A DNA stretch of 64,000 nt from Marsupella aquatica. Its lineage: Eukaryota > Plantae > Marchantiophyta. The notes under the pieces are model-generated. The model did no database searches and was not told the DNA's origin. It saw nothing but the letters and a program-made list of their open reading frames with translations. The stretch covers positions 19,417,869 through 19,481,868 of the forward strand of contig OZ316892.1 of NCBI GenBank assembly GCA_973895155.1, read 5' to 3'. The stretch's first letter is position 1. Each line of letters begins with the position of its first letter. Positions 1,090 through 36,029 of this stretch are shown piece by piece. Both the position numbers and the translations under genes were made by a program.

Positions 1090-1114
1090 AGGCCTGGCCG
1101 CAAATCATAAGCTT

Positions 1115-9351: not shown

Positions 9352-9471
9352 GCTTCGTGTTATCCAGGAAGGTTTCAGTTACTTTGATAATGAAGATAAA
9401 CTTTGGTGGATGAGTTTTTTTGAGAAACAAAAAGATATTATCAAAAACCACCTAGAGGAAGGTGAGTGGTT
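9352..9471 (+). pseudogene. 5' half of an exon split by the CACTA insertion
   Basis: After the tttaag acceptor it reads LRVIQEGFSYFDNEDKLWWMSFFEKQKDIIKNHLEEGEW, and it rejoins in frame with 26104 once the element and one GTT are removed. Confidence 0.7.
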
Positions 9472-9499
9472 CACTAGTAGAAACCGGGGGGTATTTAGA

Positions 9500-9870
9500 C
9501 CCCATTAAACGACTATTCAGTACCGTATAGGACTTGGAAACGACTGGGAAGGACTCCAGTCCTTTATAGGACTGCGAGTCGTATGTTTTGTTACTATAAT
9601 CAACTGAGTCCTTTATAGAACTGGTTTATAAGTCGTTTAATAGACTGGATTTTCAGTCTATTTTAGTCTTTGTGTGGGTAGCTTTGGTGAGTCGTTTTCA
9701 GTCTTTTATGGGCTGCGATGATGAGTCGTTGGGAACAACTAAAAAGGTTATGGAGGGTAGTCTTTAAATATACTTTGTGGGCTGCGATGATGAGTCGTTG
9801 GGAATGACTAAAAAGGTTATGGAGGGTAGTCTTTAAATATACTTTGTGGGGTATGTATAAGTCTTTCATG
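9500..9870. repeat. CACTA subterminal repeats including a ~69-bp direct duplication
   Basis: Clustered GACT/AGTC motifs; tgggctgcgatgatgagtcgttgggaa...tactttgtggg present twice (~9709 and ~9778). Confidence 0.7.
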
Positions 9871-10366
9871 TCAACTGGATATGAGTGATGAAGACCCCAC
9901 TATACTACTTGGAATGAACCCACTCTTGTGCACAAATAACATATTGCATTCATGTTTTATTGTGTACTTGGAATGAACTCACTCTATAAGTTCACCATTC
10001 ATCATGTTAACATTAGAATACATAGTTTCAGAAAGCCATCTTCTATACCATGTACACTAATATGAATTCATAGATTCAAACTTCATAGACTACAAAGAAG
10101 GTCACAAAGTATTCCTCTATACCATACACACTAATACTGAAATGATAAAATAGATTCAAGTATCATAGACAATCACCATAGAGCCATAGTTTGACATCAA
10201 TCACTTGTTTCATACATACAGAATTCAGAAATATCAATGTCACACACAACGTCTCCTTCATCCTCTTTACCAAATGGAAAAATTGGTACAGATATTTCTT
10301 GGATCTTTCCAAGGCAATGTCAAAATGTGACACAATTCACATGATTCTATCTACACTTGCATTTAG

Positions 10367-13300
10367 TCACTGCAGACTAACACACTCTGATGGCCAGAGC
10401 ACAAGAGATCCTACTGCATCTGCAATTATTTCCTGAGGTGGATCATCGTCTCTATTCGGAAATGGCAAATTACAATCAGATACAATCACTGTAGTCAACA
10501 ACACTACTACATGGTCATCCGGGACCACTTTGCCATGGAATTTTGCATGATCCGGTCGTAAAATGCCTGTACCCACACATACCTGCGAGTCATCCTCCCA
10601 TGATAGAAGATTATGGACTGGCTCTGCTGTGGCTATCACCTCCACCTTACCCTGGCTGTTTTTCTTGGCTTCTTGGGTGGCTTATACATGATATTATTCA
10701 TACCTTGGTTGCGAGTCATGACTTTGGCACGAGTGTTTTGTGCTGGTGATCGAGAATTGGCTACACTCTTCTTCAAAGAATCTGCATCCATATTTGACAC
10801 TTCTGATTGTGTAGCAGGATTTCCCTGCGACATCATCTCAGTATCTGCCAACATTGTACTTGCTTCAATTGAAGCATCTACAATCTTACTTGCATCCAAT
10901 GTTGCTCCCAAGTTTCGACGTCGCTTCACCCTGCTCCCACTTGGTTGAGAGTCTGTCAACTCTACATCAACTACAATTCAGTGTCATGTCCAACATAAGT
11001 CAATCACTCATCACATGTGCTAAATGTACATGTCACCAACCACAAAGTTGTCACTATCTCCTTACCATTATGAACAGCCTTCTTCCCCTTCTTTGCCATT
11101 GCCATATGCTCCATGTCTGCTTCTGTTGATCAATAAACACACCACAATATTCAGGTTGAATCTATTAACCACTGAATTGTTGCTCAACATTCATATAGAG
11201 GAATTTAAAGCATCAGCTTACCTGATACCTCCTTGGCTATGGTCACTGAGGCACTGGGCACATCTTCTTCATTATTGCTCTTTGAATTACTTGATACATC
11301 AATCATGATGTCACTTCAGATCCCAGTTCATCCAACCAGTTCTTACAGAAAAGATTACCTCCAACCGGCTTAAGCTTCACAAAACTCCATGCACTTTTCA
11401 AATGTAATGTACTGGATCATAGCAGGTTACCTGTCTCAGCAACCTTCTTGCCCTTCTGCTTACTGATTACAGGGTCCTTCTCTGCCTCCACTCTTCCTGC
11501 ATTCAAACCATTCACTCAATTCATGAAAACTTACTTCTAACATTTGAACATAGGACACAATGAACAATGGGCCGGTGTCATTTCCATACCTGTGTCAGAT
11601 TTGCCAATTCCCTTTTTTGTTAACAAGGGCACACTTTGTACAATGTTGCCCTCATTGTTTGGTTGGGAACCACCCAATTTTTCAATCACAAGCTTGAAAT
11701 TAGATTCCACTGATGCAAGAAGGTTTGCTACAGATGCCTCCACAATATCCAAACGATCAGCCAATTTACTTTCCACTCGAGGGAGTCCACACTCTAATGA
11801 CTTCAACCGTTCACACATCTCTGTGAGAGTTGTAACAGTTCCCTGTCATAACACAGCTTACATATCTCAGATAACTGTCCCCAAGAACTGGTTGCTTACT
11901 TCCTACTACATTTCTTTCTGATGCTCAAGGCCAAATAGTCACAGAACATACATAATTACAACATAATCACCTGTTTGGAAGTCACACTTGTCACCTCACT
12001 CCTTTGTTTCATGAACTCCTCTCTCACTTCTTGTGCTGATGGTTCTTCACCTGTCAATTTCTTCTGCAGTCCACATCAACATACATATGAATGAAACCAA
12101 GTGTTGATTGTCAATGAAAATGTAATAATGGTAGCAAGATGATAAGTTTGAGGCTTACTATCAGGCATGTCACTGCCTTACCAATTGTTCTTTCACTGGA
12201 GCATAACTTCCTCTCCCAGCCTGTGAAAGGTGTTTCACTTTGCCTTGAGCATTTGACATCAGTTCACTCTTGCTCTGTCCAGCCTCCGACATGAACCCTT
12301 TGATTAACCGTGTCCATTGATCCAGTTCCAATGATGGGGGTGGTGGCATTCTCCTGTTAGAACCATTGTCTATCCACATCCTTTTCAACCTATGTCTCTC
12401 TTGTTTCAAAATCCTCATTGCATAATCTGATATGCAATCTTCAACTGGGCCCTTACCATCATTACCAACATAGTCCCACCGTTCAAGAATGTCCTTGCAG
12501 ATAGCAGCCCAATCAGCTTTGTTCTGACTCCTAAACTCTGTAATGCTCAAATCTAACCAACGCAATACTTCTCCTCTTAGGTCAGAATGCCAACGGTTCT
12601 TACCATCACATGTGGGAGTTATCCAACCTTCGGAATTCACTTCTATTTTACCAAATTTGTTACTGTCTCCTGCCTTGGTACTCCCTGAAGCGCTACTAGG
12701 TGTCCCTCCACGGCCTGGTGTCCCCCCACGGCCTGGGGTCCCTCCACGGCCTGATCTCCCCCCACGGCCTGGATTGCATTGTCCAAACCTAGCTCCCTGG
12801 AGTCCCTGCACATTTACAGGATCCATTTACAGTCACTTACATTAGGTAAGTATGAATCATAAATCCCGCTGCCAAATATACAGTGGACTTCAGAGCAATT
12901 CTGCAATGACCAAGTTACCTCTCCCTTGGCGCATAGATGGTTCTGGACCACCTGTCCTATTGCTTTGTCTTGATGAATTAGGGGCGTTTCTCCCGCCTGT
13001 GAATGATTGCCTCCTATCTGAACGTGGATGGCCTTTGTTGTTTTCGTGATTGTCCCAATCAGAGTCTGCATACCAACAGGTACATGCCACACTCATGGAC
13101 CTGTAAGATAAACTCTTTGCCCTAGCTACACATCAGATAAGTGCATATTGAGCTAAATCTCTACTACCATCACAAAATCACTAGCACAAGGCAATTACTT
13201 GTCCAATCATCCTTCTCACCTTTCCATTGCCCTCTATACCCGTCTCTACCACGCTCTGGGTGTTCATATTCATCCCATCCATCTTCTGCTCCATCATAGT

Positions 13301-13541
13301 CATCATCATAATTATCAGGCGTCCCTTGCCAATAACTCTGGCTCCTTCTAGGGTATGGATTATGTGATTTCTCTCTAGCTGCCCACCTACCTGGGACTTG
13401 ATGAGGGCCCTGTGCATCTTGCACAGGTGCATTTTTCTGTGAGCCCCCTGCATCTGGGTCTCCATCCATATCCAATCTTTCCTCTTCACCCCACTCTCCA
13501 AGCCCCATGTCTGTCTCCATGTCATCACCCTCTTCCCCCAT
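10367..13541 (-). CDS. CACTA TnpA-like (ORF2) multi-exon gene
   Basis: Exon 12170-12826 (ERHRLKRMW...PPPSLELDQWTRLI...KSELMSNAQ) resembles TnpA/Ptta-type proteins. Last exon 10367-10645 (FHGKVVPDDHVVV..LPFP..IADAVGSLVLWP) resembles the TnpA C-terminal domain. Exon structure is approximate. Confidence 0.7.
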
Positions 13542-13718
13542 AGCTTCTACACAGCACCCACAACCAAACAGGGAGAATCAGCACACTAAATTCAAAGTAT
13601 CAATCAATTTCATGCATATCCAACTATCCTAAACATCATTCCAGGCAGCAATTCCCGTTCTGTGACTCTGTGCAGGTAGTCATCCTCAACCTCATACTTG
13701 CCAATCGCCAGCTGTTGC

Positions 13719-16700
13719 CTATTGCAAATCATCAACCTCATCATATTCCATTTGCCCAGGTTCATCATATGTCTCTCTCAATGTTAAGGGGATGTAGTCA
13801 GTCCCTGCCCGAGTTGGAAGTACAGTCTCATGACTAGGATGTTCGAATGCAGCATGGTCATCCAAACTGAACTCTACTTTACTTCCATCCATCCGCCTAT
13901 TCCGTGCTTGGCTATGGCATACCACCCTCTAGCCATGTGACTCCTCCACATCTGCAAAGAAAGCCTGTTCAACTTGGCTAGGGAAAACAAAAGGCTTAGA
14001 CCATTCTGGTACTCTGGACCTAAAATTGGCCAACAAGAACCCATCATGATCACGCTTCATGGTGGCCCTTGGTCTCTGCCACTCTGATTTCACCCATGAT
14101 CCCTTCATCAATATCACTGGGACACGTGTGTTACCATAATTCAACACCCAAATGTTGGTCAACTCCCCCACGTAACCCATCTTCATCCACCCCCTCTATT
14201 CTTCAGAGGTTCTCTGCTCAAACACAGAAATCAAACCACAATCATATGATACACAATGGTCACCCTGCTCATCCCTCACTCGATAATGATTTCCATAAGC
14301 TCTCATCCGTTTGTAGGTCAGAATAGACAATCGTGGTGGCACAGATAGAAGATACAAATCCTTCTCCATATCTGGGTGATGTCTACTATGCTCTCGAATT
14401 GTCACCCGAATCCACTGCTCGAATTGTGGGAAGGGATCCTGCTGCCCAGAGTGTGCAGCTTTTTGCATATCATATTCCCTACAATATGAGGTACAGGCAT
14501 AGTTAGGTCTAACAACACATGACAACCTAAGATCACCCTTGGAACAGACAAGAAGCATCACAACAAAGGCAAGTCAATTCAATCACTCACCTCCACCATG
14601 GTTGCATAGGCTCTGTGTTTGCCAGCACATATGAATGAGCCTTGTCTCGAATCGCAACAGGCAGCTGAACAACACGTCCCACACCTTCAACAACCTCGCC
14701 ACTCACTCCATCATCTTCACCAGATTTCCAAACTCTTGTCATAGCTTCACCAGACCCAGCCATGTACTCTGTTAGGAATCCCAACGTCTCATCCTTAATG
14801 TACCCCAATGCCATGGAAGCCTCTGGCCTGTAGTATGTTCTCACATGACCTTTCAACAACTTCATGTATCGCTCCATAGGGTACATCCATCTGGTACTGA
14901 CTGGCCCATACTGCCCTAGCTCTTCTACCACATGGATTAGGAGATGAGTCATAACATCAAAGAAAGCAGGGGGGAAGTATATCTCCAAGTCACAGAGGAC
15001 ATAAGCAGCATCCTGCTTCAACTGCTCCAATCCTTGGGGATCCCACACTTTCACACATATACGGCGAAATACATTGCACAGTCAAAGAATGACATTACGG
15101 ACTGGTTTCTGCATGAGACCTCCGAGGCATAGGGGCAGAATGTGCTGCATCAACACATGGTAGTCATGTGTTTTCATATTGCCAAGTTTATTCTTTGTAA
15201 TATGCTTCTTGAAGGCACCAGCATAGCCAGAGGGCACTTTCAGACAGCTCAATCTATACAAGAATGTCTTCCATTCATCCTGTGTGCACACATAGGGAGC
15301 TTGGAACTTGAGAAGTACATTGGGATTGCTTGCATGGGGCTTCAACCAAAGGTGAGGGCGAATCCCCTTCTGTTGCATATCAGCTCGAACTGCTCCTGTA
15401 TCTTTCTCACCCGACAAGAACTTCAGCAAGCTCTCACAAATATTTTTCTCAATGTGCATGACGTCCACATTGTGTTTGCTGGGCTCGAATTCCTGCACTC
15501 CACAAAGCAAAGAATTCAACAACAGAAACACTAATTAACCACAGAGGAGGATTGTAACCAACATCAATCCACCATTGCTCCAATCTAAAATTGCAATCAT
15601 ACAGGGGCTGGAGGCTAAGTACATTACCCTCCAGTACTCCAACTCCAAGTCCATCAAGGTCTGTCTTTTCACACCGTGTTTCACCACTGGATCCTCAGGT
15701 TCTCGATCAGTGGCACTTCTCTTGTCCCAATCAGCCTTCCTGGCTGCCCACCTCAGGACTTGCTCTCTGGTGACCCTCTGTGGTGGGCCACGAAGCTCTG
15801 TTTTGTTGTTGAAGTGTGCAATTTGAGACCGTGTGTGCCTGTAAGGATGATCAACAGGCAGATACCTTCTATGCCCCTGAAATTTCATACTGTGCAGGGC
15901 ATGCGACCACTCACTTGTCACATTTTTCCCACATGGTGTGCACCCCACATAGCCCTTTGTCACTCGTCCAGATATGATGCCATGGCCTGGGTAATCTGCT
16001 ATATCCAACAAACAAATTGCATGCAGTCTAAAGGGGCTGGGTCGAAGAAGCCCCTTCAGAACATCATGGGTTAACACCCCTTCTATCCACAAAGTCTTCC
16101 ACTCTTCCACTGTTGGAGCCAACATGATATCTATGAATTGCTCGGTCACAGAAGCTGGTCCAGGGATTAACAGCACCATCATGACAAAAAACCTCTTTGT
16201 AGTCATCCATGGGGGAAGGTTGTAATTTAGCAGCGTAACCGGCCAACATGAATAACGGTTGTTTTTGTCTCCAAATGGGTTTACTCCATCCAGTGATAGA
16301 CCAAATCAAAAGTTCCGCTTCTCTGCAGCAAATTGTGGCCACCTCTCATCAACAAATTTCCAATGGTTGGAATCTCCAATGTGACGCTGCAGGCCATCAC
16401 TGCTCTTGTTATCAGGAGTCCATGTCATCAGCTTGGAAATGGCAGGGCATCTAAACAGACGTTGTAGTCTAGGAATGAGAGGAAAATGACGAAGAACCTT
16501 GGCAGGGTGTGTACATTTCCCTACATTCTTGTACCTGTGCTTACCACAATGAGGGCATGTCAATTTATCTGCATGCTCTTTGCGAAAGAGAACACACCCA
16601 TCAGGGCATGCGTCAATAGACACATAGTTCAGCCCAAGGTTAGACATCAATTTCCTAGCCTCGTACATATTTTTTGGAATTGAATTACCATCTGGTAACA

Positions 16701-17430
16701 CATTTCGGCGCAGGAAGGTCAACAACTCTGTCACAAATATATTGGGAACATTGTGATTGCCACAGATGTTCAACAACAACACGACAAAACCCAGCTTGGA
16801 GCAGTTCGACCCCTCGTAGATAGGAATGCAAGCTTCTTTGATGTGTTTTGGGCCCCCAAACACCCACTCCCTCTCTGCTGCACCTTCCCCAATGTCAAAG
16901 TCAGGTTCAGCTTGGCCGTCGCCAATGTGTGGTTGCGGTTCATTGTCCTCTTCTGATTCCACTGTGTCATAAAAAGCATCAAGGTCTTCAAAAATCTCTT
17001 GAACCATTCTTGGGACATCCATCCCACCGTCCTCAGTGACTGCCTTTGCCTCTCCATCTTGGTCATCCACGTTCTCATGTTGGACCCCAGGACCATCCTC
17101 TGCACAGTCTATGTCCTGCTCTACGTAGTCTCTACGCTTAGCTGTATTAGAATCCACAAAGTCAGCTCTCCACTCTTCATCAGAGGAGTCTTCTTCTGCT
17201 GGTACATTCCAAACCCTCCACCGAGGGTGCCTTTCATGCCGCAGCAGGTGAAGGTGCACAGTGTTCAAACTCAACGACTTGAATCCTTGGCACTGTGTGC
17301 ATGGGCATCTCATCCTCCTACTCCTACCTTGGGCGGCCCGGGCTTGTTCACGCATCCACAATTTAGAATCATGATGCCTAATCCTAAATGGGTTGTGAAG
17401 AGGCAACCTTGGAGCCATCACTATACACAC
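13719..17430 (-). pseudogene. CACTA TnpD transposase (Transposase_21/DUF4218/DUF4216), spliced, with premature stops
   Basis: RCPCTQC, IDACPDGCVLF..CPHC, LRHFPLIPRLQRLF, LDGVNPF, DYPG, DVMHIEKN, KTHDYH, FPPAFFDVMTHL, WMYPMERYM, PFVFPSQVEQ. In-frame TGA at 16306 and 15082. Confidence 0.95.
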
Positions 17431-17744
17431 GCACTCAGCACCCTGTCATTTTATTATGCAAGTGAAAAATACACTTCCTGTTAAGGATTTCACCCCCGAC
17501 TGTACTTGCCAAAATATGTAACGTTCCAGAAAAACAAAAAAACAAAAAATATAGGTGCCTGAGTCATGTACCTATTCTCAAGTGAATGAGACAAAATTCC
17601 TAAATGTTTGAGGGTGTCAACTCCTCCGCTGTCCTCACATGTATTGCCTCTGCACGTACATCCATGACCATATCAGAGTCCAATCATGTATAGTCATAGA
17701 CACAGGTGCCAGGTGCGAGACCGGTGTGAGATGTCCTCATCTTA

Positions 17745-18314
17745 CTACCACATCAAATACGGATACCAATCCTGTTGTCGATGCCACTCAGCCCTGAGGT
17801 ACTCAGGCATGTACATTAAGTCATCAAGGTCTAAACCCTGCTCATGCCATGGTGGTCTTCGATCCGTGCCTACAAGCAGTGGCAGCAGTGCCCTCCATGG
17901 TGCACATGTTGCTACCAAGTCCCTCCACTGGGTACTAATTAGTCTAGATTTGCAGATATCTTGTGCGCCAGACACCACAAGAACCCTCGGCCAGACATGT
18001 GTAAGAACTATATCATCTGCCAAATCAGGCAACAAGGAACCACCTACAGCATCGTGCTTGTCTAACTCATCTGCTGAAAAGTAAATGTCCTCTTCCGACT
18101 GTGCATCCTCATTCACCACAGCATTCACAACACATCCAAGGTCTGCAGGCATTACCTCGGATGGAGCTACACTCTGTCTGGTTACCAATCCACACAAGTA
18201 AGCCCAAGCAGTAGCCATGCACAATGCAACCCGTAGGAGGACCCTACATAGGGCCTGACGGTCTGGAAGAGGCAGCATACCCACCAAAGTCTTCAACCAA
18301 ACAGAGCCCAGCAA
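17745..18314 (-). CDS. Small F-box-like protein (CACTA cargo)
   Basis: LLPDLADDIVLTHVWPRV...CKSRLISTQWRDLV fits the F-box pattern LP-LPDD-V...R-VS--W--L. Confidence 0.6.
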   Translation of the reverse strand: MLGSVWLKTLVGMLPLPDRQALCRVLLRVALCMATAWAYLCGLVTRQSVAPSEVMPADLGCVVNAVVNEDAQSEEDIYFSADELDKHDAVGGSLLPDLADDIVLTHVWPRVLVVSGAQDICKSRLISTQWRDLVATCAPWRALLPLLVGTDRRPPWHEQGLDLDDLMYMPEYLRAEWHRQQDWYPYLMW

Positions 18315-18454
18315 GTAGATTCATAGTCACACCCCACGCAGCAGGAAACAACAATCACTTCAACTGCGACCAACCATGACAAGATGAGTTAGTTCAAGGA
18401 TCACATTTATTACAAAATTGTGATTTATACAAAAATATGAGGGACTCCTACTCC

Positions 18455-19303
18455 TCACTCTCTCCCACCTTTGCTAAGCATACATCTCCGCTGAATCTTG
18501 GAGGGCCAGGCCTCAAAAATATCAAAGTCCCAAGCATTCTGTCGCTTCCCTCTAGCTGCTGATTCCAGAAGCCAATCAAGGGAAAGCACCCAAAGATTGT
18601 TGTTCATGACAAAATCACGCACTATTGTCTTAAAGAATTTTCTGCATATTTTCATGTATGACAGACCTACAACATGAGTGGAGGTTTCTGTTAGACTCTC
18701 CTCCACTGTCCCACCTAGCTCAACAACTATGGACTTGTACAGTCTGCACTTAGTCTCCCCAATTCCTTCTTCTACAAATACCACACTGAACCCCTTCATA
18801 ATGGTATTTCTCTCCTTGCCATGCTCATTCAATATAGCATATGCACGCATAGGATGGTGTCCTATGTTGACAACAGGTCCATATTGGACAGAAGCAAAGT
18901 TGGGTTTCTCTGCCGCTGCTTCATAGGCTTCCTTTTCAGCCAAAGCCTCTGCAGTGGCCTCCTCACTCTCCCACAACTCATATTGCTCAGTACTCTGTAC
19001 ACACCTATGTTTAACAGAATCGGTCAGCCAAGAGACTTCAACTACTTTTAGACCTTGGTTGGTAATGGCAGAATCAATGAAGGACCATGACCACTTGTTC
19101 ATCACATCCAGCCATGTCCCTGCAACAACATGTGTAGTCTGTGGAGTGATGTCCTTGACTTCAGTCCCATGGAACTCTGAGAATCATTTTTGTACGATTG
19201 GCCAACTCACTTGGGTGAACCCATAGTGGCCAGGAATCAAAATGGCTTTGATTCCAGCCAATAGAGGCGGGTGGTCAACCTTTGTACGTTTCCTAGAGGC
19301 CAT
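18455..19303 (-). pseudogene. Tandem BRCT-domain protein (CACTA cargo)
   Basis: From ATG 19303 (MASRKRTK), with one TGA at 19184-19186. Two repeats: TTHVV...KVVEVSWLTDS and LGGTVEESLTETSTHVV...WVLSLDWLLES. Confidence 0.75.
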
Positions 19304-19901
19304 GTACACACGGGCCACCTAATCACTGCAGACCAGAAGATAATGCGTTCACCTGATAATCGGAGGGCCCTTAAAATGCTGCGTTTATAACTTAGTCCAG
19401 TCCAGTCGTCTGGTGAGTCTCTGCTCCGATTCCAAACGGGAGAAATATTGGGACAAACGTACTAGACACCTGCAAGCATGCACCTCATAGTTTGAATATG
19501 TGCCTTCACAATATTGAAGGTGACAAGTGCAATTGTTTTGTGATGCCACATATAGATGTTGTAAATGGGCAGACATTCAATGAGAATACAAAATGTTGGT
19601 ACACTTTAAGGGAATTCTCGCAAATTAAATAGCCTTGTAACTTATATGCTCATAATGAGAAGTCCTGATTTAATTTAAGCAGTGTCATGTAAGTCGTGAT
19701 CAAAATGATTGCAGAGTTAAAAAAGTTCCTAGAAGGCTTAAGGGGAGTTTTTGAAGGCATGTACCCAGGAACAAGTAATGAACTTAGGGTACTTGTTGCC
19801 TAAGCATCCTCTCCTACAGAGGTCCTTCTTCTTAAAATTGGAATGTCTGCAATCTCCAAGGTATCCACATCAGGTGCACTATGCATGTACATTATTCAGG
19901 T

Positions 19902-20582
19902 TCAAAGCCAAGAAATGTGATCTCTCATGGGAGTGTGCAAAGTAGGATCTATGGCATGGCGATGACAATAGAAGATCCATCGATCAACACCATGTGCAGA
20001 GTGATCATAGATGTGTCTGTCATAAGCATAGCCTTCTGCTTGACGCTCCTTCAAACAATGAAAGTGCCACATGGTGGGACACCTAACACAGTGGACTATG
20101 TCCACCCAGAAATCTTCATCGTGCTGACCACATGCCTTGCACTTATGAAGTGGGCAAGCTGTGGCAAGATCGGGCAAACATGAAAAACAAAAGAACCTCA
20201 CACAATATCTGTCAGGGCATTTCCTAACAAGTGGTGGAGCATCAATAGAGCCCTCATAAGACCCCAACTTCCCACACTGTGCACACTTAGCCTGCTTCTC
20301 CAAACAATTAGTGCACATCCAGCCTCCCTGGTGTGCTGACGGGAGGCCCACCCCTGGACAGTTGTTTTCTGCAGCAAGGTCAGACTCCGGGTTGAGGTGG
20401 AAATGCCTCATGCAAGGGCCCTCACATATGGCTAAGCCACCACCATCGTCACAAATGGCACAACAATGAGCTGCCTTCTGGAAAATCTGACTTGCAGAGA
20501 AGTTACTACCATCTGGCCCAACTACACCTGTGTTGCTCACCTCTGTCCCCCGCTTCTTGGCTCGGATTTTAGGGTGTGCCAT
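19902..20582 (-). CDS. Stand-alone EDM2-type composite PHD finger protein (CACTA cargo)
   Basis: CAICDDGG..CEGPCMRHFH...CTNC...CAQCGKLGS...CPLHKCKAC...CVRCPTMWHFHCL...IFYCHRHAIDPTLHTPMRDH mirrors the EDM2 PHD region including its YC.H.ID..L.TP.RDH tail. Intact, with a basic N-terminus. Confidence 0.85.
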   Translation of the reverse strand: MAHPKIRAKKRGTEVSNTGVVGPDGSNFSASQIFQKAAHCCAICDDGGGLAICEGPCMRHFHLNPESDLAAENNCPGVGLPSAHQGGWMCTNCLEKQAKCAQCGKLGSYEGSIDAPPLVRKCPDRYCVRFFCFSCLPDLATACPLHKCKACGQHDEDFWVDIVHCVRCPTMWHFHCLKERQAEGYAYDRHIYDHSAHGVDRWIFYCHRHAIDPTLHTPMRDHISWL

Positions 20583-21201
20583 GCCTACGCATGAGATAGA
20601 TAGTACAATTTAGCAGAGTGCACAGACAATACAATTTAGTGCAGTGTACAAAAAGTACAGTGTAGCATATAGACTAGAGTGGCAATTGCTACTGCAATGA
20701 AATGTTCACACACATGTGCAGAGTAGACATACTTTTTGGTTTGTTGAGCCCACACTAAAAACTGATCCCCTCGTACAATAGCTCCACCTACACCTCAATT
20801 TTGTGGCTATGATTCACCAAAGGAGATCTGCAACAAGATTTAATGCATTTGAATCACATATAACAGTCGTGACATGTAAAACAGACATTTTTTGAACAGG
20901 ATTGGTATCAAGCACTCTGATCAGGGTTGTAATTTATACATCCTAAATAGGCTATGATAGTGAATGAGACAAATAAGTTAGGCATAAATCACTTTTTCCA
21001 GGTTATCACATGGCCCATTAATTCCAGTCTTTGAAAGGAGACTTTTAAGTGAGCTTGCTAGCCTCTTAAATTAGGATATTGTACTTAGTGCAGCCATAAT
21101 AGGATAAGTTATGTACTGTTGACCCTAAACCCTGGACCCAAAATTGGTCATAATTCAAAATCTTAAGTAAATATCCTCTCTGTTCAAGTCAAAGTGTTAA
21201 G

Positions 21202-21701
21202 TTATAGGTCAATGGTCTCTGGTTTGTGCATGCGGTGTGACAAGTGGTCCTCTAGAGCGTGTGATCCAAACATGTGTAGACACCAAAGTGACCGGTGGTG
21301 GGGTCTAGGAGGGCAGGACAAGTGACATCGCCAGGCACACTGCAGGATGGCGAGTGGTTCCAGATGATACATTGTGCTCTGTGAAAAAACCGACATCCAA
21401 GAGAACGGTCATCCAACTCTAGGCCAGAAGCCCTACAGGCAGGACAGTCATATTGGCAACTGTGCACACACCCTTGGGCCCTAATTTGTGGCGGGTCATG
21501 TACGAGAGATAGAAATACCAAGGATGTTGGGAAGGGTGGAGAAGCAGGTACAGGCCGGTTGTAGTTGTTCCTGGCAACAACTGGGTACTCAAAGTACCAT
21601 GCAGACTGGGCTGGAAGGATCCCAAGTCTGACATACTCAAGGCGCAACATCTCTGCCTTGCGTGCAAGCCGCACATGTTCAGCGTTGCGGGTCCTCACCA
21701 T
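21202..21701 (-). CDS. Small Cys/His-rich ORF of unknown family (CACTA cargo)
   Basis: 149-aa ATG ORF with CVHSCQYDCPAC, C..FH...C...H...C. Same orientation as the other cargo genes; possibly extends past the TAG to 21202. Confidence 0.35.
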
Positions 21702-24700
21702 AAGTGTTGCTTTTGTGGAGATGTCGTGTGTTCACGTCCTCTGATAAGCACCTTCGATCAGCAAGGTGAGCAGGAGCTGTACTTGCCTCACCAACAGCAA
21801 CCAACCTTAAATTATCAGTTCCCACTCACTGTGTCATTCCATTGGTTCCAGCTAGGGGTCACAGTGTAAACATAGCATGAAACACTCCTAATCAACTTGC
21901 TTACAAACTACAATATCCAGAAAGAGTGAAAGTCTCACCCTCCAGTGAGCAGCAGAGAGGTAGTTCACTAGATGTGTTGATGTGCAGTTAAACCTCCACT
22001 ATTGCTTACTTCTGGTGTATGCTGCTCAAAAGAAGACATATTAGTAGCAGCAAATTGCAAATAATGGCCATAAGCAAACCGTGAGAGTTTGCAGAATGCT
22101 ACGACAAATCCATCACAGCAATGCTCCACAGGAATGAAACCAAGCAAAATTTGGTGACCTCGGCCAATGACAAGGCCAATGTAGTGAACAATCCTTGACC
22201 GATCAGGATATGGATTGGAATTACAATTAGTCAGCTCTTCTTCTTTGTTTTCTAACTCTGGGGGAAATGAGCATGACCAGGGAATTCTCTGAGAAATAGA
22301 AGTGCACAGGGAAAATGAAATTGGCTCATTCAGCTGCGCAAGACCGGCCATTGCAGCATACTTGGACAGTTGTTCCGCAATACATAAAATACCCTGACTT
22401 ACATGCAATCGATACAATCTGCTTCTGTTGGCTGTCCTACAGCTCACGGCAGTGCTGTTGGGATAGGGTAAGTGAATATTGCCATAGCTGAAGCACATTG
22501 AGCTTGCAGCAAGAAGTGAAGGAGCATGGCCAAAAGCAGAAAAGACAGACAGGTTTTACAAGAAGAAACTAACAACCGCCAATCTGCTCAAATCCGCTGC
22601 ATAGATCAAACCCTCCAAACTACACAGCCCTCCTTTGAAAACAATCCAATGTGCTTTGGCTGGTGGATGACAAGGACTGGGAGAAGAGGAAACGTCTACA
22701 CAATCAATCCAAATGACGGGACACAGAGACCAGGCACAGAGAGGATTTGTGCTTAGACAAAAACCACAAATTGTAGCATGGGCGCCATAGCATTGGGCGG
22801 CAATGGGAAGAATTACATCAAATGAGTGGACAGAGAATGAACAGTCCGGTTATAGGCAAACAGCGACTGATGCCCTGATGCAATGAAACACGCATTGACA
22901 TAGCGGAGGGACATAAAAACTACATAAGCCAACTTACTGACCTTTTAAGGCCCACAATTTCAAGGGGAGGGACAAAGACAGCAGTAACAGACGCAGAGAC
23001 AAAGTTGTACTCTGTCAATTGAGTAGGCAAGTGGGTGGGTGAAGATCAACAACCAATGTAGCAGCGCAACCAGAGTAGCAACAAAGAAGCAGGTTGCCCT
23101 CAGTCTCCTATTTTTCAAGCAGCTCGTGCTCGCCCTCAATCTCCTATTCTGCAAGTAGCTCACGCTCATCCCTCTTGTTCTGCAAGCAGGTCATTCTTGT
23201 TGGCGATGGTGCAAGCTGTCCTCCTAAACTCTGACACTCAAAATGAAAAGACCAAGCACCTCCAATCTGTTTGATCCCTTCCGCAAGCAGCCGAGCGATA
23301 GACGATAATGTAGGGATCAAGAACCAAGTGCCAGGCGGACATTGCACAAAATGAGGACCGGGGGCAGAGACAAAATCTACCAAAATCTACCAAAATCTAC
23401 TTCTTGGGGTCCAGCCCACGGATGGACATCATGCAAGGTGGTCAAAAATGGTAAGTGCAATTGTTGCAGAGCTGTACTCGCGATTACTAATGGTGCATCC
23501 ACAAAACGCGTCATCAAGTTGTCAGTGTAGCCACAACAATTTTGACAGTCTTAGGATCACAGGTCCACAAACAAGTTGCAAATGAAGACACACAACGTCC
23601 AGGAGGGAAAGTCCGCAACACTAACCCTTTGTAAAGCCCCCGAGCTTACCTTCTAGCTACCGACGCAAAGAGAAAATCTACTCGGACACTGAAGCAACCC
23701 TAAACTCAAAGTCTCACCTTAGCGCAACAACTCCTGGATTGGATTCAGCTAGCTCAGGCTCAATGAAGCATGTCGCCTCGGGCTCTCCGGATCCTCCCAA
23801 GGCAGCAAACAAGTTAGGGTCCACGGTCCTTGTACCTTCACCGCACCGTTGTGTCCTTCCCAATGCCTCCTCTGTAGTTGCGTCTTGTCTGCAACTCTAC
23901 AGCTCCCCGTGTTGCTCTGCCGCACTTAGTTATATTCCAACGCCCGATCGTGACCAAAAAGAGTTTTCTCCTGCTGGACAGCACTAGGCATTTGTTCAAT
24001 CTCTTGATCACGCGTAAGCAGCTACAGGTATGAATCACTCAGTTGGCAGCTCAATACGCTTACAGCAAGAGGGCGCAATAGGTAGAAGCTCGCGCTACCT
24101 AGACCAGCACAAGGACAAAGCATTAACATTGAAACTGTACCATGGAGCTGGAGAAAACCATAGAGTAATTGAAGCCTAACAATACCCTTCTTAGCTCCCA
24201 ACTCCAAACTCTCGGCTCCCAGTTTGCAAGAACAAGCACTATGAAAATATGGATTCCCACACTGACTGTGTCCGCAGAACAGATGCAACCCGCATGCAGC
24301 TTCACCAGCTCAACGGCAGCTTGACAACTGAAGGACCTCCCAATGAGCCTCACGGCCTCCCGATGCTCGTTATGGGTGCAGCAAAAGGGTCTATACCACA
24401 ACTGTGACCGAGATTGTCACCCAAAACCTTGAAGAAACCCCAACCTCCGACTCCTCAAACTCCGACAAGCTCCTCACGAACGTTGCAGCAGCCACAACCT
24501 TCTTCGCCCTACCAGCCAAAAACTACATGTCCCTAAAGGAGATCGAGCAGGAATGTAGGCCTATGAGTAGACTGCAAGCGCAAGGTTAGATCACCGCAAC
24601 TGCCTGAACACTGCTCCTCGAGAGCATAAACAAGCACATAACGCGCAGGAAGTTCACTCCGCAATGGTCACAAAAAGTGGGCAACACTAAAAGGAAAACC

Positions 24701-26103
24701 CTACGTAAAACCCCGAACACTCCACCCCTCACGTTCTAAGTTCAATGACAATGGCGAAAACTCCAAAGAGACTCCCAAAGTGAAGTTTAGTGCCTGAAAC
24801 CGAATTAGGGGAAGCCACTCAGCCTTACCGTTTGAGTGAGCCGTTGAGTGTCACCCAAAGTGGGACAAAGCTACAAAGTGTTACTGCATGGCCAACTTAG
24901 GCAATGAATGGTCATCTTTGCACATACATGGTCGGTAGTGACATTTTATTGCACGCCGTAATCAGGATTAAGGTTGCCCAACATTATATCCGGTCCTAAA
25001 ATGCAATATTCCCGGTGCAAGAATGTGACCTAGCTCTAATGTATGAAAAAGGACCGGTACAAATCTACCTTTGTGCATCTTGACCTTTTATAGATGGATT
25101 TAGTAATGGCCAAGAATATCTTGACCATCCGTCCATGGTCCAACCTCCATGAACCCCACTTCATTAAACCCAAAACCTTTTTGGTCACAAATAAGGACAT
25201 TTAATGAGTTATGCCCCTTGCTATCACCCTCTTTATAGATTTATTTTTTTGTTTGAAATTTTACATTTATTCCGCGTGAACCCCACGGATGGGGGAACCA
25301 GCAGGCCAAATGGCATCATAAAACCTCAACACCCAAAGGAGGCAATAACAAAGAGTTACTCAACCAGGGTCATCAGATCAGGCAAAGATTGCGAAGCCGT
25401 TCTTCTAGTGGTCCATGCAACAAGTAACAACTAGGGAATAAGCACTAGAAGGCGCAGTAGGTCAGCATAGTGTAAGTGTAAAGTGTCAAAGCATTGTCTA
25501 GTACTAAATTAATCCACCTGATTAGTAAGAAGGGGGTGTATACTGTAATGGGAAAAAGAAAAAAAAAACCAAGGCATGAGCAAGGGCCACCAAGAGTGGT
25601 GCAGCTATAAGCTATAGGGATTGAACACAATGCGGGGGGGGGGCAGTGGCACTATGTATGAGGAAATCACGGGAGTATCGGTGTCAAATGAGTCGACAAA
25701 ACTCCCAGATAGCCACACAGTATAAATCAATCTCACAAAAGGCTGCCATCAATGGAGGAAACAATTTGACACGACCCACATCTGAGAGTGTGAATTCGCT
25801 CGATCTCCAGCAGTTCTTTGGCACTCGATAGATGTCGGTGCTTTCGGCTCAAAGATGAAGGAGAATTACCCCTCCTCAACATAGAGTGAACATTACCCAT
25901 GATGTGCTAGACTATTCACCCTTCACAAAGTGGCAAGGTTACTTCTCATAGTCTTTTAGTGAACCATAAAACTCTCATAGTCTTTTCTAGTCTTCAACAA
26001 AACCGGTGCAATGGGTGCGAGTCGTTTTAAGTATGGAAAAAGGACTTGGTGGGCATAGTCCTATAAGGTATGGTCTAAATTGCCCCGGTTTCTACTAGTG
26101 GTT

Positions 26104-26623
26104 ATTTGAGTGGGTTTGGCCGCAACAACTACTTCCAAGGGTGAGAAATGAACTTGTTGAAGAAGGTGTTGATCCAACTTTGGTTGACAAAGTTGCTGGA
26201 CCACAGAGAATTATGTACTCCGGACCTTGACGAAAGCAAGCTGAATTTGGAGATTTCAGAGATATGGAAGTGAACAATAAGTGGTCCATGATATGTGTAG
26301 CAGCACACAAGGATCCAGAAGGCAAGTTGTTTTGGATGGCAAAGGTGTCAAAGATTTTGACAAGAACTGCAAACATTCCTGAGAGAATCAAAATCACATG
26401 GTACACAACTGAGGCAAGTGCTGAGTCTGCTATTGATGGGAAATATTTTCCAGAGAAAGATAATATATCTAATCGACTTCTCCAAGATGAACTAGTTCTA
26501 TCATCAACAGCGGTGTATGCATACAACTTTGCGCTTTTAAGTACTAATCAAATAGCAGCAAAAACTAAAAAAATTATAGAGTCTGCTATATTAGAGAGAG
26601 GTTCTGCACACTCAGAGGATTGA
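26104..26623 (+). pseudogene. 3' half of the CACTA-split terminal exon; probable C-terminus of a transposase-like protein
   Basis: Continues LFEWVWPQQ...YSGP*RKQ...KDPEGKLFWMAKVSKI..IKITWY..GKYFPE..YNFALL. No catalytic core is visible, so the function is inferred. Confidence 0.55.
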
Positions 26624-26657
26624 GATTGATGTTCTTAAACAGGTACATGCATCAATT

Positions 26658-27545
26658 TTAGAATTTGATCTCAAATAAATTTTCTAAGGTTACATGCTCT
26701 TTTACAATTGTACCATTTTTCAGTAAATAAAGACTGTGCATCAAGGCATTGTGTAATATGCCATTGAATTTTGATTTTGTCCATATTTTGAAGAACAAAT
26801 AGACCACAATCTGAATTGTTTGGTTGTTGAGGTACCTGAGAAAGAATCTTAAAGTTAGTCCAAAGTGTTTAATAATTGAACTAAATAAAAGTTGAAATAA
26901 CTTTTCAAATCCTTACCATTGGATTGTATATCTCCACAACTCCCATTGGAACTTTTCCAAAAAATAATTCCCATTCCATTGTAAAATATCTGCAAATTAT
27001 CATTCAAAGTTCTTAGTCCAAAGTGTTTATATTTATGTACCACATAAATAAATTCAAATTGAAAAAATGTAATAGAATATATACGTACTTGCTCAGTATT
27101 GATCCAATTACATGGGTTGAGTGTAGACCGGCAAGAGAGTCTAGATGATACATTTTGATCGAAGATTCAATCCGATCCAAACATATTACAACCAGACTCC
27201 AGTGCATGCTCATGTGAATTGGCATGAGAATGACCTCAATTTGGGAAAATGGTGGCTTGTAATAATTCCGCATCTTTTGAATTGATTCCAACAAGGTCTC
27301 AACTGGTTCTGTTTCAATCCTTGAAACAAGCCAAGGGTAAAAAAAGAGGATAATGTGTTTACTGAGGGAGCCAGATCTCCATGTTCCTCGGTTATTAATT
27401 GTGGGTAAAATTCCATTATTTCATCACCCAAATATTGACCGGGTTCAAGTTGGCTCAATGTTTTATTGTCCAAAAGAAATCCACTAGAAGGATTGTGTGA
27501 GAATCTATGCAGAACATGTTTCAATACAAAATCCTCCTTTGGTTC
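26658..27545 (-). pseudogene. Ulp1/SENP (peptidase C48) SUMO-protease domain, three exons
   Basis: LEPGQYLGDEIMEFY, LSSFF, ILMPIHMSMHWSLVVI (His), YHLDSL (Asp). Exon ~26990-26918 reads YFTMEW..NPM; the exon from 26835 reads VPQQPNNSDCGLFVL (Gln/Cys). One frameshift near 27300. Confidence 0.9.
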
Positions 27546-27669
27546 CTGCAAAGACATTACTCCCGACATTACTTTGTGAAATAAGAACATAGTCCAATCA
27601 TAATCTTCCTCAATATTTTACAAGTTTGGATCAATAGATACAACATGAGAGAACTAATCAAACTTAAGT

Positions 27670-28785
27670 CTACACCTCAAGGAATGAGCCAAGATCAAGT
27701 GCCGGAGCTTCATGTTCCACTTCATCCTCTTCATCCTCATCATTGTCATTCTCCTCCGCGGTTGTAATAATGCAAGTTCTAGTGGTGAGGGTGCTCGTAG
27801 TACCACCAATAGGTGGTTGAACCTCAAAGCTCATGGGTCCTGTACCTTCCTCGGTTGCTTCATCATTCAAGTCCCACGATTCATCAAGCGTGACAAGTCG
27901 GGTCCGGATACAATCCACCTGGCTTGTACTGAGCTCCACGGCTGTCACCGGACGTTTCCCTAACAAGGCAGCGCATGAGGTCGAACCACTTCCCGCACAT
28001 AAATCAACAACCCAATCCCCTGCTTCACTAAAATGTTGAAGGAACCAATCTGCTAGAGCTATTGGTTTCTGGTAAGGGTTCACTATTTCTCCCAATGGTG
28101 TTACACATTTCTTTGTAACACAAGGGACTTTTATGATGTTTACCCTTTTCTCATCATGTTCAAAATTGTACATGTCTTTGGTCCTAATACCACTCTCGTG
28201 ATAATATCCGATTGACCAGTTTCAAAAGCCCAAGCCAATCGATTCCCGGAAGGATGAGCATGTACATTTGGCTTCTCCCAAATTCCAGCCTCTACACCTG
28301 CGTTACAAGTTTTTCCAAGAGCATTCATCACAGACCAAGTTTGCTGCAAAGAGTGAATCACAACAAACCTCCACATCTTTGAACTTGTCACCTTGGCAAA
28401 ACAATTCACCATATCCACAATATCACTCTCTGAAAATGGGACCTCATCATTTTCAGAGCCAGGCGCATTGAATCCATAAGGAATGTCTGCAATTGCAAGT
28501 GTGTAATTTCTTTTCTCTACAAACTTATCCAGCGCCCTGACATCTCCACAATGCAATGTATATCTGATAAAATTTCCGTCAGTGTTTTTCCATCGATGGT
28601 CACTTCAAGACTCTGCTTCAACCGTTTCAATCCCACGACGACAGTTGTAGTTCTCAATCACTTCTTGAACGTAATTCTTAAACCCCGGGGGAATAACACT
28701 CGAAGTTAGCTCCTCCGTAGGCTTCTCAACCGCATCGGCACCAATTGCATCCTTGTTCTTCTTCTTCTTCAAAAAAGCTTTCAAC
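27670..28785 (-). pseudogene. N6-adenine/N4-cytosine DNA methyltransferase domain, beta-class motif order
   Basis: LHCGD, LAIADIPYG (motif IV, ~28476-28487), IWEKP, PYQKPIALADWFLQHFSEAGDWVVDLCAGSGSTSCAA...AVELS (motifs X, I, II). Frameshift near 28175; acidic tail. Confidence 0.85.
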
Positions 28786-28870
28786 TGCAAACGCAAACTT
28801 GTTAAAAGAATCAAGAGGAAAGACAATGGGGAGATAACCATTTAGGAATTCAAACAATCAAATTTGGATG

Positions 28871-29272
28871 ACGAATGCGACATGGGATACTTCGTATCCT
28901 AGTTTGTATTCAACCAAGCAAAAACCATAGTCAAACATCACCACCGTCAAATAACCACAAGTGAATCCGAGATGGGATACCCCGTATCCCACTTCGCATT
29001 TGACCAAGCAAAAACCACATTGTAACATCACAAACGTCAAATAACCACATTGAATACGAGATGGGATACCGCGTATCCCACTTCGAATTCAACCAAGCAA
29101 AAACCACATTGAAACATCACAAACGTCAAATAACCACAAGTGAATACGAGATGGGATACCGCGTATCCCACTTCGCATTCAACCAAGAAAAAACCGCATT
29201 GAAACATCACCAACATCAAATAAGCACAAGTGAATCCGAGATGGGATACCCCATATCCCACTTCGCATTCCA
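28871..29272. repeat. Palindrome array A: 5 units, ~90-bp period
   Basis: TGAATnCGAGATGGGATAC-N3-GTATCCCACTTCGCATTCAA at ~28871, 28961, 29050, 29140, 29230. Confidence 0.92.
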
Positions 29273-29351
29273 ACAAGAAATCCACGAAGAAAACCTCCGA
29301 ACATGGCGAAACAAATAGAAAAGTCCAATCAGTGGAAGGGGAGAACATACC

Positions 29352-31315
29352 ACATTGGACAATTTCCCACTCCATCTTTCAAGCTCGGCAGATTCTGTTT
29401 CTTTCGGAAACATTCGTTTGCAAGTTGCCTAGTCTGGCTGCCCTAACAACTGAAAAAAAAGCTTGTTGATTTTCACAAGTTTCTTGTAACTCTCGGCTTC
29501 TTTTGCCATCTGCTCCAAAGAGATCATCCGGTCCTTCACTCGGAGAAGAAGGGACTCCAAAAATTGGTCGTGTTCAATTCCTTGGATTGCTCTCCAAGGT
29601 GTCAAGGTAAGGCCCCCTGCAAGCTTATTCAAAACTTTTGGAATCGACTGCGCTTTTCCCTTAATTTCCTTTCTTGAGTTTCTTGATTGGTGACTTCTGT
29701 TTATTCTGCCCTTTGATCTCCAACTTGTTCCACATCTCAAAGATCTGGTCTTGGAGTTCCCAGACCTTACCCGACCTAAACGCAATTTGGAAGAGAGGCT
29801 CATGCTTCTTCAAGCTTGTGGCGTCCCCCGGAAAAAACCCGTCGAGGCAAACCTCCATCGCACACGCTTCTCTAGTCTCCTTGGTTTTTGCCATTCCTCT
29901 GGCAAGGAAAATCTTATGCATTGTTCGGATTTGATCAATGTTGTTCATTTTTTCCTGTACTCCTGATTAATATTATGTTGGATGCTAAGTTTCTGAATGT
30001 CCTCCCTTGTGAGACCAGCATACACCCAAGCTTGGAGTTCATTGAAGATCTCTCTCCCATAAGCCTGATACAATTCTCTCTTAGCCTGAGCACCATGATT
30101 ACCTCCAATCACTCGATATCTCCAGCTTGTTGCCTTTTTCTGGGTCCTAGTCTGTCACTGTCGGGCAATCTTTGAGAATCACAAACAAGACAAATGGCGT
30201 CGTGAAATTTGTCGGATTCATTTTCATCAAAGTCTTGATGTTCTCCACATGCAACCAATGGACTGTTCGAACCAACGTTGAGTTCTCATCGTCAATATCG
30301 TCAACAAGAAGCAAGTTAGTTGTTTTCAGAATAACTATTGTCTTCTGAACTTGCTTAGTCTCCATCAACCGAGACACTTCTTCACGAACCACAAGTGTCT
30401 CTTCCCGCTGCAAAGCTGTGGTGATATCTATTGAATCGTTTTTCTTTTCTTTAACAGCTCCCCTAGATGATAAAGAAGGCCCACCTGACGAAGTTGAAGG
30501 AATCTGAGAAGGTGTCTGTGAATTGGTGGGACCAAAGATGAGACAACACTTCCTGGTGCAGAAGGCGCGCGCTTCTGGATGTCACGTCGATCCAATTTCT
30601 TCTTGACAATAGCTTCTCCTGACACCACTACTTTAGAACCTTCCCCGGAGAGTTGATCTGCAAGCTTCCTCTTTGCCGGTTCCTTAAAAGAAACTGTGGC
30701 AGATTTCTCCTTTGTCAAGGGTGTTCCAGACATCTCCCTTGACTTCGAAGCCGGATCGGTAGGCTTCGTCACTTTCAACTTCAAAGGCCGCTCTTTGACA
30801 CCAAAGTTGGCTCCAACAACGGACCTATACGCTACCTTCATAAAACCCTCAACAACCCTCCAAGACTTCAAGACAAATTTTAAACACCAATAAGACAAGT
30901 CCTCAATCTCCGGCACTTCCGAAATTAGCTGGCAGATCGGGTCATCAGGAAATGTGTTCATTGAGACCCGATCAAGTTTCTCATAGTTGAGGACAACTAA
31001 AGTGAAGGCATTGTTCGGAAGAATGCAAAGGTACATTGGAATCTTCTTCAGCTGTTTTGTTTTTGAGTCGGTGATATCCGCCTCCCCGGTGTCCATGACT
31101 AATCCATAATGGCAATGGTCTTTACCCTTAACTATAACCAACCACACCGCTGGACCTTCATAGGCTCTATGAATATCCATCGCCCGAGCATCCCTGAAGT
31201 ACCACCTATTCCTCACGAGTTTCTCCTCCGTGTAAAGGTCTTTCTTCCAAATCTCATCGACGATGGATGTCCGTGAAGACTGGGTCGAACCAAACGACTT
31301 TGATTTGTTTGACAT
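29352..31315 (-). pseudogene. N-terminal part of the same gene, including a ParB/Srx-like domain
   Basis: ATG 31315 (MSNKSKSF). Across frameshifts it reads LVRTVHWLHVENIKTLM...WRYRVIGGNHGAQAKRELY...WVYAGLTREDIQKLSIQHN (IGGNH at 30095-30109). GTATGT donor at ~29352 and TTTGCAG acceptor at ~28786 link it to the MTase exon. Confidence 0.65.
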
Positions 31316-31358
31316 GATCTTGAAAAATATTGACACACTTAGAACCAGACCAAAAGTA

Positions 31359-31832
31359 GTTGAATGCAAGATGGGATACGCGGTATCCCACCTCGCTTCC
31401 AACATCAACAATTGCCAAGTCTGATGCAAAGAACGAAAAAGAGGGAGTTGAATGCAAAATGGGATACGCGGTATCCCACTTCGCATCCAACAACAATAAA
31501 TGTCCAGAGTCTGATGCAATTAACGAAAAAGAGGGACTTGAATGCGAAATGGGATACGTGGTATCCCACTTTGCATCCAACCTCAACAATTGCCTCGAGT
31601 CTGATGCAAAGCACAAAAAAGAGGGAGTTGAATGCAAAATGGGATACACGGTATCCCAGTTCGTATTCAAAGTCAAGAAAGAGCGAGGAGGTTCGGATGG
31701 AAGACTAAAAAGAGGATGTTCAATGCCAGATGGGATATGCGGTATCCCATCTCGTATTCAACATTGAAAAGAAGGCCAAATAATAGAGTTGAATACAAAG
31801 GGGGATACGACGTATCCCTCTCAGGATTCAAC
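31359..31832. repeat. Palindrome array B: 6 units, mostly 88-91-bp period
   Basis: GTTGAATGCnAAATGGGATAC-N3-GTATCCCACTTCGCATCCAAC at ~31359, 31447, 31537, 31627, 31718, 31788. Confidence 0.92.
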
Positions 31833-32298
31833 AATTAACCAAACGAGGAGGGAAGAGTTTCTTTAGTTTTTACCTATTTTTTGGTTTCAATTCGAGCAAA
31901 TACGAAAAGCTATAGAGATGTTGCGGCCCGAGAAAAACGCGGAGGCAAACAAAGTTGAGAAGAAAAAGAAATGAGAGTAATTTTTCTGACCAGGCACTCC
32001 TATTTATACTTTATCACCTTCGTATCCATAGGCAATAAGGTTTCCACATGCGATAATGTGTATCCAAAAGCGTAGGGTTGGAGTCCGGATGTCTATGTAT
32101 ACTTTTTTCTCTTGATGGGACTAGAGATAAGGCATATCCCCAAGTCCTTGTATTCAACCAAATAGATTTTACGCGTAGCGAATCGGGTTGATGCAAGGGT
32201 AATCACAAAACTCTTTATTCATTCGAAATTGTGCCACAAAATAAACTAAGTTGATATTCTTAAAAAGAGTCTTTACAAAGAGCCCATTCAAGATGGCT

Positions 32299-32818
32299 CT
32301 AAACCAGACTAGAAGCTTCCCCATACATTTCCAAGAGCCTCGCTTGCTCATCTTTCTCAAGATTGTGCCAGTCTTCTTGAAATCGATTTAGGTCAGACCT
32401 TGAAAATAAACCTAAGAAATTGATTGGAGGAAGATTCGGTGTTTCCATCCTAACAAAAGCTTCAATATGAACATTCTGAAGGGGTTTTCCATCGGGAATG
32501 CTTGTCAGCATTTCATTTACTTCCTCAAGCTGGCTTTTTGCTAGTCTAAGAATACCCCAGACTCGTGTACAAATTATGAGCTGGTTCCATTTCTTGGAGG
32601 TGCATCCAAGCCACACCATGGTTTTTAATCGCATCAATCTTTCATCAGCTTGGTTCTTGGAGGAATCAAACTCATCCTCTATACAATAAACTTTCAAAAT
32701 GGGCCAAATGAACGTTTCAACAATATCGTCAGGAAGTCCATCCAAAAGCAATCCGGATTCCCTTTGGCCACTTTTTGTTGAATTTGTTTCTTCTCTTTGT
32801 CGAATGACATCGCTAACC
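32299..32818 (-). CDS. F-box-like protein, last exon
   Basis: LLDGLPDDIVETFIWPIL...LGCTSKKWNQLI. Preceded by a tttacaag acceptor; upstream exons are likely at ~33300-34030. Confidence 0.6.
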
Positions 32819-35978: not shown

Positions 35979-36029
35979 CAATATGAAGGAGGATACTGAG
36001 GTGTGTTCACCATTTTTTCTCCATCACCA

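Follow-up and report, generated by a model that had tools for sequence, protein, structure and literature searches.

A stand-alone EDM2-type triple zinc-finger gene in a CACTA transposon of the liverwort Marsupella aquatica

The CACTA element, its genes and its surroundings

The stretch of the Marsupella aquatica genome analysed here (64,000 nucleotides; hereafter referred to as the window) contains a CACTA (EnSpm) element of 16,629 bp at positions 9472-26100, all the genes of which lie on the minus strand. The element is bounded by perfect CACTA/G terminal inverted repeats of 18 bp (18/18 matching), the left one at 9472..9489 on the plus strand and the right one at 26083..26100 on the minus strand, and is flanked on both sides by a 3-bp target-site duplication, GTT, at 9469-9471 and 26101-26103. 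With a Tnp2-family transposase also present, the carrier shows all three of the features by which CACTA/EnSpm elements are recognised, and its identification as a CACTA transposon in the initial annotation is confirmed. In the 5' to 3' direction of the minus strand, the genes follow in the order of a 149-aa ORF, a PHD ORF, a twin-BRCT gene, an F-box-like frame, Tnp2 and likely TnpA exons.

The PHD ORF is a stand-alone, EDM2-derived triple zinc-finger gene at 19902..20582 (minus strand), which encodes a protein of 226 aa (P0001) in an open frame running from ATG to TGA (20582 to 19902) without interruption and composed of a basic N-terminus and three Cys/His fingers. It had been described initially as intact and intronless, which is true of the coding frame; a 5' intron or an upstream exon is permitted by an AG that precedes the ATG by two bases. 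The basic N-terminal segment (residues 1-12, 20547..20582, delimited by eye and of low pLDDT) is likely to be a nuclear localisation signal. PHD finger 1 (C41-C93, 20304..20462) keeps 8/8 of the host ligand columns, finger 2 (C100-H146, 20145..20285) carries a His-to-Cys change at residue 132 and a linker of 7 residues, and finger 3 (C148-H209) together with an EDM2-type C-terminal motif extends to residue 225 (19908..20141), all on the minus strand. Of 26 Cys/His columns, defined on six EDM2-like rows that do not belong to the family, P0001 agrees with the hosts in 24, the exceptions being the substitution at 132 and a His-to-Ala change at 98.

The Tnp2/TnpD transposase (14590..17418, minus strand) matches Transposase_21 (PF02992) with an E-value of 5.5e-49 and DUF4218 (PF13960) with an E-value of 7e-28, and has a predicted intron at 15493-15627. 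It carries two in-frame TGA stops in the window's copy, at predicted codons 371 and 734, where the original residue was presumably Arg in both cases, judging from Tnp2 motifs; the stops at 15535 and 14587 were rejected as lesions since both lie within predicted introns. The twin-BRCT cargo gene (18455..19303, minus strand; 282 codons, intronless) has one premature TGA at 19184-19186 in the window's copy, a position at which an uninterrupted 294-aa homolog (P0161, 60% identical) has Arg. By sequence comparison this cargo gene is also conserved, and a link to DNA repair at excision sites is possible. The F-box-like cargo frame (17745..18320, minus strand) is weakly matched, with a Pfam F-box E-value of 0.065 that lies below the cut-off, and also resembles, weakly, a frame of the same kind at 32299-32835. 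The 149-aa Cys/His-rich cargo ORF (21252..21701, minus strand) is stop-free inside and is of unassigned family, with no Pfam match and no usable Atlas match. The likely TnpA-like exons (10367..12826, minus strand) were placed by position, the Pfam scan of this region giving no informative match.

The copy of the element differs from five long contigs of run X2 at 32 of 4728 bases and is, on this comparison, a young and lightly decayed insertion. Its strong CG depletion (o/e 0.21-0.40) points to methylation of the element in the course of its history.

Several other mobile sequences were observed in the window. A second, decayed element (26500-36000) adjoins the CACTA element and contains a Ulp1 protease (27016-27420, Pfam E-value 9e-9), a bacterial-type N6-adenine/N4-cytosine DNA methyltransferase in two frames (27670-28604, PF01555, E-value 1e-6), the above-mentioned F-box-like frame at 32299-32835 and probable DDE transposase frames recognised by eye with no Pfam match (34362-35978); within it, a palindromic motif occurs 17 times at a spacing of about 90 bp in three clusters (28857-34292). 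A 969-aa Ty3-type RT-RNase H-integrase frame (by eye) lies at 948-4121 between inverted repeats of 142 bp with 99% complementarity. Two Ty1/copia-like elements (by eye; 36843-43577 and 45403-50977) have direct repeats 98-99% identical and are therefore recent insertions. A 21-bp tandem array (59327-59620) and a RING-like frame on the minus strand (60692-61354; by eye, no matching Pfam) mark another probable element.

Ancestry of the finger module

A profile of the family to which P0001 belongs scored 143, 131, 125 and 121 bits on liverwort proteins (Calypogeia, Riccia and Marchantia), 106 bits on P0043, which is named EDM2-like by NCBI, and 42 bits on a fish NSD protein, the range over the EDM2-like proteins being 102-143 bits. 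The NSD match ends at about profile position 165, before the C-terminal motif common to P0001 and EDM2, and an NSD origin of P0001 was rejected on the grounds of this lower score and missing motif. A homologue search across 1.84 billion representatives gave 243 matches, of which 150 were listed and are covered by the counts given here. Among the matches listed, the first seven are short relatives like P0001, and 100 of the 108 longer than 450 aa have the RFD or the methyltransferase-like part of P0043. SET and PWWP domains were found in none of the 30 long matches scanned and are also absent from P0001. The RFD and the methyltransferase-like domain are absent from the 226-aa frame of P0001, which comprises the fingers only. 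Based on the domains of the long matches, the profile scores and the C-terminal motif, the module of P0001 is assigned to the EDM2 type, in agreement with the initial annotation, and the protein itself is not an EDM2, all the other domains being missing.

The PHD1-3 module of NSD1/2/3 is homologous and provides the nearest Pfam models and the nearest PDB sequences. Pfam gave only NSD-like PHD models on P0001, all of them below the cut-off, and the sequence searches of the PDB returned NSD2/3 and AIRE only, with no EDM2 chain among the results. The Atlas match for P0001 was a streptophyte PHD_NSD cluster at 0.93. A search for longer forms gave no fused one, the single match among 1194 candidates being a fish NSD protein, which is weak evidence for the absence of such forms.

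Four relatives of P0001, 217-245 aa in length, were found at 81, 74, 53 and 39% identity, and further ones were recovered in the larger search; the records examined derive from Logan, JGI or ENA contigs and carry no informative name, and their C-terminal ends are nearly identical in position. In a tree of 42 rows, from which rows with a matched region below 120 or above 300 residues, or not spanning the profile, were excluded, the nine family rows form one clade with support of 99/97 and a stem of 1.29 changes per column. A 136-row FastTree agrees with a single stand-alone clade. The comparison with host EDM2 and NSD proteins that had been suggested initially thus yielded a separate clade with EDM2-specific similarity. 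The clade falls outside all the EDM2 rows and adjoins the long NSD outgroup in the unconstrained tree; grouping it with the liverwort paralogs costs less than 1 log unit and is not rejected (p-AU 0.41), so that the trees single out no donor clade.

EDM2 and the EDM2-like proteins, known from the AAE complex, share with P0001 the composite finger block, the same Cys/His columns and the C-terminal motif. Besides the missing RFD and methyltransferase-like domain and the location of its gene inside a transposon, P0001 differs from them in characters that are shared by its family. The finger 2 ligand at 132 is Cys in 10/10 family rows and His in 80 of the 82 scorable EDM2 rows (87 examined), and the linker after this swap measures 7 residues in the family as against a host median of 27. 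The lead-in to the fingers is basic in P0001 rather than acidic, the 12 residues before the first Cys containing on average 1.2 D/E in the family and 5.4 in the hosts; Asp at -3 before PHD1 is present in 66/87 hosts and in 0/10 family rows. The Asp/Glu that follows the third Cys, a residue with a predicted role in the binding of H3 Arg2, is kept in 10/10 family rows.

The deep clade, the range of identities (39-81%) and the shared derived traits support an old rather than a recent capture of the EDM2 block by the CACTA lineage, as had been proposed. The accompanying claim that the block was precisely trimmed in the transposon could not be upheld, since the Marchantia host has a 280-aa PHD-only paralog (Mp4g03050, P0067) and the trimming need not have occurred in the transposon. 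Another short host-side protein is P0057, a PHD-only EDM2-like protein of 287 aa from Miscanthus. The unnamed records P0032, P0042 and P0079, which are short and consist mostly of the PHD block, fall in the same flowering-plant branch of the tree as P0057.

Conservation across copies and relatives

Five relatives with 40-75% identity match P0001 at 25-26 of the 26 ligand columns, as compared to 34-77% of the other domain columns; the binomial p-values for this excess range from 1e-3 to 1e-11 in a sample drawn by homology search, which favours motif-keeping copies, and the relatives recovered also retain open frames and the same C-terminal end. The retention of Cys/His residues under strong divergence, pointed out initially, is thereby borne out. 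The conserved ligand columns, the shared His-to-Cys swap and the shortened linker at 39-81% identity argue for long selection on the protein.

The initial annotation had also contrasted the intact ORF with the broken transposase beside it. The contrast is real, and as evidence of selection it fails: at a stop density of 0.85 per kb (two TGA stops in Tnp2 and one in the BRCT gene), a frame of 678 bp escapes interruption with P 0.56, and the count of CGA codons gives an escape probability of 0.53. The intactness of the window's copy, expected by chance in about 55% of cases, was accordingly rejected as evidence for selection.

At the DNA level, the test for selection is weak. Variants within the ORF fall at third positions in 19 of 38 rows. 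In one contig of X11, with 45 S and 180 N sites, 9 codons differ synonymously and 14 non-synonymously (a ratio of about 0.4-0.5); the respective numbers are 3 and 10 with one stop in X9 and 2 and 4 in X6, these being counts from single contigs that include decayed copies as well as the mutations of the window's own copy. At least 7 of the 23 family proteins apparently run out of frame, as judged by eye, which is expected since multi-copy transposon genes decay.

Among the sequencing runs, which had themselves been selected through this region, X1, X2 and X5 (with three organism codes) have contigs over 30/30 bins of the CACTA element, including the ORF and the transposase. The cover by X6 at 80% identity or above consists almost only of patches inside the ORF with loose ends, X6 also covering parts of the transposase in a patchy manner; elsewhere, the ORF is covered by a few contigs in X9 and X11 and by no contig of X10, which is no proof of absence. 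Physical linkage of the ORF and the transposase is seen only in the window's copy, and in the near family the two are co-covered by separate contigs, with none joining them among the contigs listed. The candidate related loci from metagenome contigs (0/475) and viral contigs (0/160) were not confirmed, and a DNA-pattern search gave two loci, both of them chance matches. Overall, it appears quite probable that selection acts at the level of the transposon.

Predicted fold and probable role of the product

The AlphaFold2 model of P0001, built with 14 sequences, has a mean pLDDT of 70, with residues 1-38 and 215-226 below 50. The best Foldseek matches are H3-binding PZP domains (E-value 2e-4, TM-scores about 0.2), and the top match of a wide structural search is the tandem PHD of Ehd3 with a VIA-align Z of 4.4, no match reaching a Z of 5. 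RING-type folds were matched by the third finger as well, with low Z values that tie with those for PHD and are no better. The model is thus compatible with a PHD-type fold and silent on the ligand.

EDM2 fingers bind H3K9me2 and other marks (PMC7472560, PMC9910501, PMC7529245, PMC3632883). It is fairly likely that P0001 too recognises the tail of histone H3, not necessarily with H3K9me2 as its mark; the loss of the acidic patch before PHD1 counts against such binding. As predicted from its fingers-only composition, the protein can read and has no effector.

The tentatively preferred explanation, to which we assign somewhat less than even chances, is that the zinc-finger block of a plant EDM2-like protein became an old accessory gene of a CACTA lineage and was kept across divergent relatives, its product binding H3 tails and, instead of acting as a decoy, tethering the TnpA/TnpD transposition machinery to chromatin that bears the mark, either where the element excises or at its targets. 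Such a tether is favoured because the PHD-bearing Ginger1 and Mutator transposases, and RAG2, are analogous and because the twin-BRCT gene travels alongside. However, P0001 has no evident transposase-binding or DNA-binding part, and the structural matches are weak. In Ginger1-9_HM and Mutator (PMC2836005), the PHD finger of a DNA transposon is a C-terminal domain fused to the transposase, whereas P0001 is the product of a separate gene and contains a whole EDM2-type block.

An anti-silencing decoy, the chief alternative, is rather unlikely by comparison. Here, fingers devoid of an effector would occupy the H3 tails at copies of the element, or the host's writers and readers of H3K9/H3K4 would be titrated by an H3-like N-terminus, and silencing would be weakened. 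The absence from P0001 of all the effector parts of EDM2 is in line with this explanation, as are the family N-termini. In 10 of 20 of these, by eye, Arg, Lys and Ala stand at the distances of residues 2, 4 and 7 in the histone H3 tail (13 of 20 if Ser is counted for Ala), often with Lys/Arg at 8 and 9, in a sample with the start visible that includes 8 truncated proteins assigned to the family by eye. In the window's copy, His replaces the Arg of this pattern. The pattern was noticed after the fact in a by-eye count, and a nuclear localisation signal, being equally rich in Lys/Arg, could look alike; the basic N-terminus of P0001 is possibly a mimic of the H3 tail. Reader sites created by mimicry of histones have been described, as in G9a (PMC9768651). 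Precedents for transposon-encoded anti-silencing are provided by VANC of VANDAL (PMC5735166) and TET/JBP of fungal EnSpm (PMC12730594), which are likewise stand-alone accessory genes of DNA transposons acting on chromatin; P0001, predicted to read histones, showed no resemblance to these two in the Pfam scan, VANC being a binder of DNA motifs and TET/JBP an enzyme. On the other hand, in the absence of a DNA-binding part the effect of a decoy would extend over the whole genome, with possible damage to the host, and the CG depletion of the window's copy indicates an element that was methylated over its history. A more elaborate proposal, which we regard as doubtful, is that in a non-seed-plant CACTA lineage the stolen EDM2 finger block serves as a histone reader with an N-terminal H3 tail mimic, the mimic gating the reader or baiting host H3K9 writers and readers, within a cassette of PHD, twin-BRCT and F-box-like genes that manipulates both chromatin and repair during transposition.

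The fingers could alternatively form a non-histone scaffold that binds a factor of the host or another cargo protein (twin BRCT or F-box-like) and might serve, for instance, repair or ubiquitination where the element excises. The BRCT and F-box-like frames carried together with P0001, the alterations of the PHD1 surface and of finger 2, and the alignment of the third finger to RING-type folds would be in keeping with this role; it is nevertheless improbable, as the module descends by sequence from a histone-binding one and the matches to RING do not surpass those to PHD.

It is still more improbable that the gene is passive cargo, a short EDM2 paralog that was captured, travels along and decays while contributing nothing to the element. 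The PHD-only host paralogs of Marchantia and Miscanthus, the out-of-frame family proteins, a DNA-level ratio only mildly below 1 and the preference of homology searches for motif-keeping copies would all agree with passive carriage; against it stand ligand columns kept at 40% overall identity, the shared derived changes and a stem that separates the family from all the hosts sampled, and decayed copies are expected for any transposon gene.

Least probable of all is the assistance envisaged initially, in which P0001 recruits the host ASI1-AIPP1-EDM2 machinery for full-length transcription of the element, since every part of EDM2 outside the fingers is missing, the AIPP1 contact of EDM2 lies outside the finger block (a paper confirming this was not found in the literature search), the host linker inside the block is deleted and host EDM2 could do the job unaided. 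The idea draws on the binding of H3K9me2 by EDM2 and on the promotion of distal polyadenylation by the AAE complex, both described in PMC7472560, PMC9910501 and PMC7529245.

The capture of host-derived coding sequence by CACTA elements is also known from Pack-CACTA (PMC13317346), from which the present case differs in that the element has its own transposase, the gene is far from every host gene sampled and there are signs of constraint at the protein level. No report of a CACTA-borne EDM2-type PHD gene was found in a literature search conducted mostly over titles and the beginnings of abstracts, with subscription journals, Repbase and supplements outside its scope; the term PHD is absent from PMC13547354 and PMC13317346, and in PMC13621724 it is confined to the reference list. 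Transposon-borne chromatin factors are already known, and what is new is that a CACTA element carries among its cargo genes a distinct one for an EDM2-derived putative reader that has been conserved for long.

Accessory genes with an effect on chromatin are known from few DNA transposons of plants. Since EDM2 reads silenced transposon chromatin for the host, the long retention of its finger module by a transposon would directly exemplify the takeover of a host sensor by a mobile element. P0001 represents the EDM2 finger block in a naturally minimal form and a small, testable protein for the study of target choice by CACTA elements and of their survival of silencing.
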